Positions 9,971-52,173 of a DNA stretch of 64,000 bases are shown piece after piece. Below the pieces are notes generated by a model, which was not told the DNA's origin, searched no databases, and saw nothing but the letters and a program-made list of their open reading frames with translations. Made by a program: the position numbers and the translations under genes. The stretch comes from Octopus vulgaris. Lineage: Eukaryota. How positions within the stretch are numbered: position 1 is the first letter of the stretch; each line of letters starts with the position of its first letter. The stretch covers positions 20,708,001-20,772,000 of the forward strand of contig OX597815.1 in assembly GCA_951406725.2 (NCBI GenBank). The letters run 5' to 3'.

Positions 9971-10043
9971 CGAGTTTGCCAGGATTGGAACCGGGAATTT
10001 CCTAATCCGTAGTCAGGCGCGTTATCCATTGCGTCACAAGCCC
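9971..10043 (-). tRNA. tRNA-Arg-ACG: tRNA-Arg(ACG), probably a pseudogene
   Basis: 73 nt GGGCTTGTGACGCAATGGATAACGCGCCTGACTACGGATTAGGAAATTCCCGGTTCCAATCCTGGCAAACTCG; ACG anticodon, T-run terminator; single mismatches in acceptor, D and T stems and TTCCA instead of TTCGA. Confidence 0.85.
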
Positions 10044-35700: not shown

Positions 35701-36506
35701 AGATTTTATGCTAAATTTAACTGCAAATAAGATAATATATGACGATATAATCTAATTAGCTGTAAGAGGTCGTAAGAAATGTGAGTAAAAAAGTTTCTCC
35801 GAAAGATAAATATGGAAGCATTATACATAGTGAGTGCAATTTTAATTCCCCTTTTCGACAGTGCTAATGATAAATAATATAATTATGACGAAATAAGACT
35901 TTCCTCTTATAATTTCTTACAATGCAGATACAGAAGATTTATTCTATATCTGAAAGCAGTATTCTATATATTCTTTCAAAGCAATTTTTTTCTGTGACTG
36001 CAGATTATTCTTTCAACGCAATATATATTTTTTAACGCTAATTTCTTAACGTATTTTATTCTTTTAAACGAATATTCTTTTTAGTCATTTTCTCCCTACA
36101 ATGTGAATTATTTTTCAACGCAGTTTATTCTCGCAGCGCGAATTATTGTTTTAATACGTGTGTCTTTGTTTGTTTGTTTGTTTCTTTCTTTCTTTCTTTC
36201 TTTCAGCTCCATTTATTCTTTTAATGGGAGTTATTCTTCCAATACTATTTTAAAGTAAAAATAAATATTGTAAAAATTAGAATATATATACAGAAGAAAG
36301 TAAGTGCTGAAAACTATAGCAAAGCATCGCAATAGAAATATTCTAATTTATAAAATGACTTGATTTTCTATAGTTATAGTAAACTCTTTTTCTCGGTTGT
36401 TTTCTGCACAAAGTAGAATATTGCGTTTGATGTGTCATGAATGAATTTAAGGAAAATGTATTTTTGCCAAATCTTTAATAATAGCTTCTAAAATATCCTC
36501 AATATG

Positions 36507-36987
36507 TTCAGGCAGACTCGAACGTGAATATCACATCTCTATTCTTTTCCACCGCCGGAGAACGGCTCTATCCTTCAGGTGATTCTCCGATGTAACGGTC
36601 TTCGAGACACCGCGGCATTCTGACCTCCATGTGTGTTTCCCTAGTCGAAGCTACTCTGCAGTCGCATGAGCTCTTGTTTGTAGAAATCAGCAAATAAATT
36701 ATTAGCTGATGCGTGCAGATGCCTCTGCCCGCAGAACATCAAGAATTTCAAAATTAACGTATCTATTCTTAAGACGATGTGGCAAATTCGAACGGTCTAG
36801 TTGTGGGATTACTTCGACAAAGGAGACACCAGAGTAAGGTCGAAACACCGCGGTCTCTCGAAGTTCCCATATACCAGTAAATCCGCGAATCAACTGTGTT
36901 ATGAACGCACATCATCTAAAGAGAGGAGGCATTCTCCGGTGGCCAAAAGCAACATCGATCAGATATTCACCATCGAATCTGCCAGAA
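36507..36987. other. Long imperfect CpG-rich fold-back; candidate structured RNA or ancient fold-back element
   Basis: Collinear complementarity of 36507-36660 with 36800-36987, plus small internal hairpins. Confidence 0.65.
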
Positions 36988-37102
36988 TGCATTAAGAATG
37001 GATACATTATTGTTTGGGTTCCCACTGCTCTGACTTTAGGAAGTGGTATTATATACACTACCTGATCTTAAGTTACTATATATATAGATATGTGCGTATG
37101 TA

Positions 37103-37440
37103 TGTGAAGGCGCATGCCTCAGTGGTTAGAGCGTCGAGCTTCTGATCGTGAGGTTGTGAGTTCGAATCCCGGACCGGGCTGCGTGTTGTGTTCTTGAGCA
37201 AGACATTTTATTTCATGTTGCTCCAGTTAACTCAGCTGTAGATATGAGTTGCGACGTCACAGGTGCCAAGCTGTATCTGCCTCTTTGCCTTCCCCTTGGA
37301 TAACACTGATGGCGTGGAGAGGTGAGACCGGTATGCATGGGCGACTGCTGGCCTTCCATAAACAACCTTGCCCGGACTTGTGCCTCGGAAGGTAACTTTC
37401 TAGGTGCAATCCCATGGTCAGTCATGAACGAAGGGGGTTT
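37103..37440 (+). mobile_element. tRNA-derived CORE-like SINE (family B head, different tail)
   Basis: ggcgcatgcctcagtggttagagc..gagttcgaatccc..tgtgttcttgagcaagacatttt. Confidence 0.8.
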
Positions 37441-37454
37441 CAGCATATATATAT

Positions 37455-37613
37455 GTGACAGGCTTCTTTCAGCTTCCGTCTACCAAATCCACTCACAAGG
37501 CTTTGGTCGGCCCGATGCTATAGCAGAAGATACTAGACCAAGGTACCACGCAGTGGGACTGAATACGAAACTATGTGGTTGGTAAGCAAGCTACTTACGA
37601 CACAGTCACTTCT

Positions 37614-37620
<7 letters not shown>
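37455..37620 (-). mobile_element. SINE family A 5' half; its first ~47 nt are duplicated inverted at 37661-37708
   Basis: Matches heads at 6600-6712 and 59570-59728. Confidence 0.75.
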
Positions 37621-37662
<42 letters not shown>

Positions 37663-37704
37663 ATGCGCAGGAGTGACTGTGTCGTAAGTAGCTTGCTTAC
37701 CAAC

Positions 37705-37753
<49 letters not shown>

Positions 37754-40747: not shown

Positions 40748-40825
40748 TGATTGATTGAAATGGTAAGACAACAAAAGTATGAAAGAGACCTCGATATTAT
40801 GTAAATAGAGAAATTTATCTGTAAA

Positions 40826-41047
40826 TATAATATGGGACAGTTATTCGGTAGCCATGATAAAACTCCGAATTTCGGATGTCGGGGTTGAAAACCACGCTGC
40901 CATCTCTTCAGTTATTGGGCCATCGAAAAAAAAAACGTAAATTATTTTTTTCGATGGCCCAATAACTGAAGAGATGGCAACGTGGTTTTCCGCCCCGACA
41001 TCCGAAGCTCGGAGTTTTATCATAGCTACCGAATAATTGCCACATAT

Positions 41048-41051
<4 letters not shown>
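40826..41051. repeat. ~225-bp near-perfect palindrome of a Penelope-like terminal repeat
   Basis: Arms 40826-40931 and 40945-41051; each arm contains a hammerhead motif. Confidence 0.9.
40857..40915 (-). ncRNA. Minimal type I hammerhead ribozyme motif
   Basis: Minus strand ATAA-CTGAAGA-GATG-[22 nt]-CATC-C-GAAA-TTCGGAG-TT-TTAT; plus-strand twin at 40962-41020 has GAAG. Confidence 0.6.
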
Positions 41052-41115
<64 letters not shown>

Positions 41116-52001: not shown

Positions 52002-52127
52002 TACAACTAGTTTAACCTCAAGCAGATTCTCTGCCAGCTGGTTTATGATGTAACGTTCTGCATCCTTTATATACTATATCGCTAGCTGGGGAAGCGAACC
52101 CTGCTAACCTCCATCAGCAAACAGGAT

Positions 52128-52173
52128 CGCGGGACCGGCCAGTTTCGAGCTAGTTGGCTCTTCGTCAGCCGCA
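52128..52173 (-). ncRNA. Minimal type I hammerhead ribozyme, intact core
   Basis: Minus strand TGCGG-CTGACGA-A-GAGC-caacta-GCTC-GAAA-CTGGCCGG-TC-CCGCG; GUC site at 52135-52133, near-palindromic helix III. Confidence 0.88.

Follow-up and report, generated by a model that had tools for sequence, protein, structure and literature searches.

The DNA analysed here, referred to as the window, is a stretch of 64,000 nucleotides of the Octopus vulgaris genome (NCBI GenBank assembly GCA_951406725.2, contig OX597815.1, positions 20,708,001 to 20,772,000 of the forward strand), and the coordinates below are those of the window. The initial annotation had described a rod-like fold-back at 36507..36987, interpreted mainly as a structured non-coding RNA, a hairpin-siRNA precursor or an ADAR substrate, or else as an ancient fold-back element. 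The fold-back is indeed present: the alignment of 36495-36656 with the reverse complement of 36807-36999 contains 119 identities, 41 mismatches and 35 gap columns, and 74% of the aligned pairs are identical, as compared to the roughly 70% estimated by eye. Folding, a check proposed in the same annotation, gave energies of -173.4 kcal/mol (z -8.6) for the plus strand and -202.9 kcal/mol (z -10.05) for the minus strand of the 501-nt region, with 0 of 100 shuffles equally stable. Each arm is a copy of a 341-nt repeat that is dispersed in the genome, and the parts of the locus are the following:

36495..36754, minus strand: 341-nt unit, nearly complete (model columns ~1-326), forming the left arm and most of the apex
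36600..36651, minus strand: degenerate type I hammerhead with four core changes (G5, A6, G12, A13)
36755..36794, minus strand: 5'-truncated preceding unit of the tandem, represented by its 3' end (a pLTR-like partial tandem)
36786..36794, no strand: head-to-head junction where two truncated 5' ends meet, off the hairpin centre
36791..37011, plus strand: 5'-truncated copy of the unit (columns 130-338), forming the right arm (aligned with L001:1812-2032 at 160 bits)
36811..36864, plus strand: degenerate type I hammerhead with two core positions changed (U4, G5) and a single disrupted pair in helix III
37012..37032, plus strand: remnant of a Penelope-type 'tail', a read-through into the start of the next unit, at this end only

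The minus-strand copy was detected by nhmmer from 36724 to 36495 (columns 56-326, E 7e-46) and bears internal deletions of ~26 and ~24 nt, and its chain aligns unbroken, from 36794 to 36489, to a real tandem copy at locus L047. The partial tandem is visible as a direct repeat, 36494-36524 recurring at 36764-36794, and the profile match ends at 36755 (column 336). The junction was placed from the start of the minus chain at 36794 and that of the plus chain at 36785-36791, and the tail from alignments to tandem copies, which reach 37032-37036 in four out of five references. A minus-strand partial tandem, a plus-strand truncated unit and a one-sided tail fit the insertion pattern of the family described below. 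This layout also accounts for two details of the earlier description. The two supposed insertions in the right arm correspond largely to the ~24-nt deletion of the left arm, as seen against the copy of L047, and the apex, rather than a designed branch, consists of that part of the left tandem array which has no partner; its ATCAGC/GCTGAT hairpin does exist, as a family trait found in 57 of 80 copies.

The search around the outer ends found no TSD, and the family profile matches this locus alone within the window, both as initially stated. An Rfam search of the window, also among the checks proposed, gave nothing at the fold-back at gathering threshold. The sole match at that threshold in the window is a tRNA-like sequence at 9971-10043 on the minus strand (35.6 bits, cut-off 29), which may be the head of a tRNA-derived SINE. 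Two very high-copy repeats adjoin the element, one at 37091-37456, with a tRNA-like head at its start and SINE-like by eye, and another at 37457-37708, with a near-perfect inverted repeat of 57 nt around (TA)n at its end. A younger fold-back, with 138-nt arms that are 86% complementary and a 6-nt spacer, lies at 40798-41079 and abuts a (TA)n tract; a hammerhead scan of it gave no match. Regarding transcripts, the pieces listed as matching the element at 90% and 80% likeness are 28-62 nt long and come from assembled contigs of five presumed-RNA runs; most are parts of longer contigs that run on into unlike sequence, and they are therefore probably other copies of the family. No joint and no piece spanning the hairpin is among them, a result that is neutral on expression.

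The single-copy status suggested by the window does not extend to the genome. Searches of the 2.8-Gb genome of the same species gave at least 54 matches with the fold-back as query (40 scored of 238 candidates), 22 out of 22 with the apex alone, and at least 53 with a single monomer (40 scored of 422 candidates), which places the fold-back sequence in a dispersed repeat. A family profile built from 50 near-full copies has 342 columns, with a period of 341 nt, and gave 212 matches, spread over all 90 non-duplicate loci (duplicate loci L031, L055, L097, L104, L113 and L115 were removed before the profile-based counts, and L127-L130, repeats of earlier loci, were left out of the analysis). The number of genomic copies is of the order of one thousand, a very rough figure obtained from 14 exact pattern matches and one of 92 sampled copies matching the pattern. 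Copies diverge from the column majority by a median of 19.7% (range 13.7-31.2%, 125 copies), the best inter-copy matches with the monomer query are 67-79% identical, and no young subfamily was seen among the copies found by the genome searches; the family looks extinct. Its GC content is low (0.37-0.45 in 12 loci). As in non-LTR retrozymes, the unit has no coding capacity, and neither a shared flank nor a linked ORF was found across the 90 loci. When folded as circles, 341-nt monomers are weakly stable (z -0.5 to -3.5 for five copies, with a crude shuffle). A delta-virus- or viroid-like rod was accordingly rejected, since the self-complementarity arises from two genomic copies and single monomers hardly fold as stable circles.

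On its sense strand the family carries a type I hammerhead motif, formed by a 7-bp helix I, CUGANGA, a 3-bp helix II, GAAA, a palindromic helix III of 3-4 bp and UC, with putative self-cutting activity. At the family level, the core (CUGANGA / GAAA / UH) is found in the type I order. A pattern with an intact core has 14 sites in the genome and none for the reversed control, and a stricter one 4 sites and none for the control, whereas outside the pattern-picked set all core positions are kept in 23 of 86 copies. The three helices are 82.9% paired (86.5, 79.9 and 78.6% per helix) versus 24-42% when slid, in an alignment of 53 of the 90 spanning copies that leaves out pattern-picked loci and most long-indel copies. 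Helix covariation is weak (9 of 500 shuffles), as expected for copies decaying from a common source. On the other hand, Rfam Hammerhead_1 (RF00163) reaches 17.4 and 14 bits in L114, below its cut-off of 34; L059 has a weak match to a different hammerhead family, the window copy has no Rfam hammerhead match, and in E-value mode no ribozyme appeared among the 150 of 211 matches listed for 20 family loci, which are swamped by microsatellite 'miRNA' matches. Isolated intact-core copies prefer another fold, the three-way junction not being their minimum-energy structure. Both hammerheads of the window locus, with their two and four core changes, are predicted to be inactive.

Other hammerheads occur elsewhere in this genome. 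A different, intact-looking type I motif lies on the minus strand of the window at ~52115-52173 (core start 52168), beside a long TA array, with an extra A before helix II and a palindromic helix III; it may be the end of another Penelope-type element. The flanks of some family loci also hold, by chance, further hammerhead families in which helix II bears a long insert and the palindromic helix III is 6 nt long (L017:2431, L061:2839, L070:690, L099:768), which suggests that hammerhead repeats are very common in this genome.

The arrangement of the copies is informative about how they were inserted. Among 101 junctions between neighbouring profile matches, 63 are tandem (49 of them exact end-to-start), 37 head-to-head and one tail-to-tail. 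For the 39 loci that were retrieved independently of the fold-back query, the corresponding figures are 28, 17 and one, with 16 loci inverted. The sole tail-to-tail junction comes from L114:1524-2016, a local duplication of an inverted insertion whose copies are 94-95% identical and which retains two intact-core hammerheads. Tandem arrays reach about 2.5 units, and the 341-column model with one hammerhead per head-to-tail unit lies within the 150-450 bp described for non-LTR retrozymes. The 3' end is fixed, 85 of 129 free 3' ends falling in columns 330-342, whereas free 5' ends are scattered over the unit and do not cluster around the predicted cleavage site (columns 180-210 hold 10 of 130). 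Of 79 terminal ends, 28 have a read-through tail of 18-45 nt, and 25 of these tails are 34-45 nt long. Both ends could be measured in 12 head-to-head loci, of which eight are tailed on one side, four on neither side and none on both. Partial tandems, inverted 5'-truncated copies and a tail at one end are the signature of Penelope-like element (PLE) insertions. The hammerhead, the tandem unit and these Penelope-type ends had all escaped the initial annotation.

Head-to-head inversion occurs in 36 of the 90 loci. A dispersed family with long inverted arms could in principle be a MITE or a fold-back DNA transposon with long terminal inverted repeats. The remaining 54 loci, however, have no head-to-head junction, inner breakpoints differ from one inverted locus to another, and neither terminal inverted repeats fixed in all copies nor, at the window locus, a TSD was found; together with directional copies that show tandem units, 5' truncation and a ribozyme motif, this makes such a transposon hardly tenable. 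Classical LINE-1 twin priming predicts variable outer ends for the inverted arm. It is disfavoured here, as both outer ends lie at the fixed 3' terminus in 23 of the 37 inversions, one does in 13 and none in a single case.

A further question is whether this particular copy has been maintained for a function as a long hairpin RNA, either as a hairpin-siRNA precursor or as an ADAR substrate. Its strong fold on both strands would favour this, but the same geometry is present in all the inverted loci mentioned above, and 11 others, hand-picked for long arms, fold comparably (z -3 to -15, a rough estimate from 8 shuffles each). The identity of the arms in the profile alignment is 67.3% (165 columns), versus 67.5 +/- 4.6% for 9,986 random copy pairs, and outside CpG sites 67.8% versus 70.0% for random pairs. 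The differences between the arms, initially described as mostly of the G-U or A-C type, consist of 21 transitions and 20 transversions, half of the mismatches thus being transversions, with G-U making up 6 of the 41 on the plus strand and 15 on the minus strand. In a ranking by a pairwise aligner, the opposite arm is 5th of 107 for the left arm and 92nd of 107 for the right arm, where the left arm's deletions incur a penalty. The arms have eight derived changes in common (91st percentile), and two of these changes make up a C-G pair of helix I found in 10 of 103 copies. The left-arm rank and the shared changes indicate that the arms are slightly more alike than random pairs; a common template best explains this excess, which is also a point in favour of a functional hairpin, with weak selection as a conceivable alternative source.

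The special retention of CpGs had been overstated, since the element has an observed/expected ratio of 1.15 and the window as a whole is barely depleted (0.90). The arms keep 7 of 13 and 7 of 15 CpG-type sites of the family, ranking 26 and 53 among 145 copies, and over 87 loci retention tracks the CpG ratio of the flanks (rho 0.38, p 3e-4). CpG retention in the window arms is therefore above the median, as a functional hairpin might show, but unremarkable. Nor does the window contain any convincing protein-coding ORF among its 45 ORFs of at least 110 aa, read by eye. Altogether, a functional hairpin at this locus is very improbable, and the structured-RNA interpretation first given is left without support. 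The fallback of an ancient fold-back element had named the right class, and the refuting observation set out in the initial annotation is largely borne out, the sequence being a dispersed repeat whose arms have diverged like random pairs of copies. The fold-back is very probably an ordinary mobile-element scar, not a conserved structured RNA.

The strongest alternative concerns the nature of the unit itself, which could be the pLTR or 3' end of an autonomous PLE rather than an ORF-less retrozyme, the locus then being a truncated stub. The same end signature would be expected, and the genome is rich in elements with RT and GIY-YIG domains (at least 148 matches, 150 scored of 6,136 candidates). 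PLE pLTRs bear hammerheads, and opposite-strand pairs 100-700 bp apart have been described (PMC4209133). However, whenever family sequence extends upstream beyond a full unit, it belongs to the 3' end of a further unit, as attested by the exact junctions, and an RT and GIY-YIG ORF between pLTRs was not found. No autonomous PLE carrying the 341-nt unit came up, the family profile matching 0 of 30 sampled GIY-YIG loci. In the reverse search, tblastn of 31 ORFs from GIY-YIG loci matched 2 of the 90 family loci, where the PLE protein fragments are neither within nor adjoining the unit, but 600-800 nt away with microsatellites or other repeats in between. A pLTR stub is therefore unlikely, though less so than a functional hairpin or a transposon. 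For the same reasons, the helper enzyme of the unit is only inferred. Many GIY-YIG loci (L073, L078 and others) hold a young PLE-type family with an open frame of 781 aa, and in L073 the Pfam domains RVT_1 and GIY-YIG are present; this family is a candidate helper for hammerhead repeats, with no link to the 341-nt unit.

The preferred reading, which is very probably correct, is that the fold-back consists of two decayed copies, set head to head, of the dispersed, non-coding 341-nt hammerhead repeat and likely results from a single insertion carried out in trans by the RT-endonuclease of a PLE. With PLE-type ORFs abundant in the genome, yet the unit absent from the 30 GIY-YIG loci and without an adjoining ORF in 90 loci of its own, the unit would behave like a PLE-mobilised retrozyme and has the sequence features of a non-LTR retrozyme, not those of an autonomous PLE. 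The process would start from a non-LTR-retrozyme-like RNA, either a circle or an uncleaved concatemer, because copies continue past the cleavage site and past the unit junction, to a length of up to about 2.5 units. The PLE enzyme would nick both strands of the target and prime a cDNA from each, beginning at either of two internal sites that lie about 40 nt from each other. These cDNAs would then be joined at their truncated ends, leaving the 3' ends of the element on the outside and producing a palindrome, which would finally decay with no selection for pairing, so that any hairpin RNA from it would be a by-product.

This model agrees with what is described for both types of elements. Non-LTR retrozymes are tandem units of 150-450 bp with type I hammerheads, of 350-390 bp in mussel and 330/350 nt in axolotl, whose TSD is optional and longer than 4 bp when present (Cervera and de la Pena 2020, PMC7229834). 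The octopus family resembles these metazoan retrozymes in its ORF-less tandem unit with one type I hammerhead, its low GC and the presence of PLEs in the same genome. It differs in looking extinct and in its short arrays, and no TSD was found at the old window locus; its RNA circles and self-cleavage are putative. Head-to-head inversion is frequent here, whereas the word 'inverted' is absent from the main text of PMC7229834. PLE insertions, as described, are partial tandems next to an inverted copy that is truncated at its 5' end, and they have a tail of 30-40 bp that is usually found at one end (Craig et al. 2021, 10.1101/2021.04.23.441226, PMC8557442). For a PLE protein in purified form, cleavage and extension of both strands of the target are reported, with reverse transcription starting at two internal positions that delimit the tail (Frangieh et al. 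2024, PMC11167929). Hammerheads in pLTRs are described to undergo dimeric cleavage through a palindromic helix III (Cervera and de la Pena 2014, PMC4209133). Partial tandems, inverted 5'-truncated neighbours, one-end tails and a palindromic helix III are thus shared with endonuclease-bearing PLEs, which differ from the 341-nt unit in having a linked RT/GIY-YIG ORF. The 7-bp helix I, 3-bp helix II and 3-4-bp helix III also depart from the minimal hammerhead described for Schistosoma PLEs, with its long helix II and short helix I.

The same helper relationship has been proposed in a recent preprint, which argues that retrozymes derive from PLEs as non-autonomous derivatives (Li, Clavereau and Pollet 2026, bioRxiv 10.64898/2026.07.22.740005), based on their co-distribution and on a pLTR phylogeny in 31 vertebrates and 4 invertebrates; the terms 'octopus', 'squid' and 'mollus' are absent from its main text. 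Our literature search found no paper on a cephalopod retrozyme family, although this one may already be catalogued, since Repbase, Dfam and supplements were outside its scope.

The window locus itself is of little import, as it is a dead copy of a mobile element. Its family, on the other hand, provides countable support for the proposal that Penelope-like enzymes move animal retrozymes. It also advises caution, because strong rod-like hairpins in this genome arise as by-products of insertion, and folding energy alone is here a poor ground for calling a conserved non-coding RNA or an editing substrate. In a broader reading, for and against which the chances stand about even, the family would record, in fossil form, how a Penelope enzyme copied an ORF-less ribozyme RNA circle foreign to it onto both nicked strands from two fixed internal start sites. 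If so, the 37:1 bias towards head-to-head over tail-to-tail junctions and the tail that is never two-sided (eight one-sided and none two-sided, n=12) would be in vivo footprints linking animal retrozymes mechanistically to PLEs, and this pathway would routinely seed the genome with long fold-backs, as potential sources of dsRNA.
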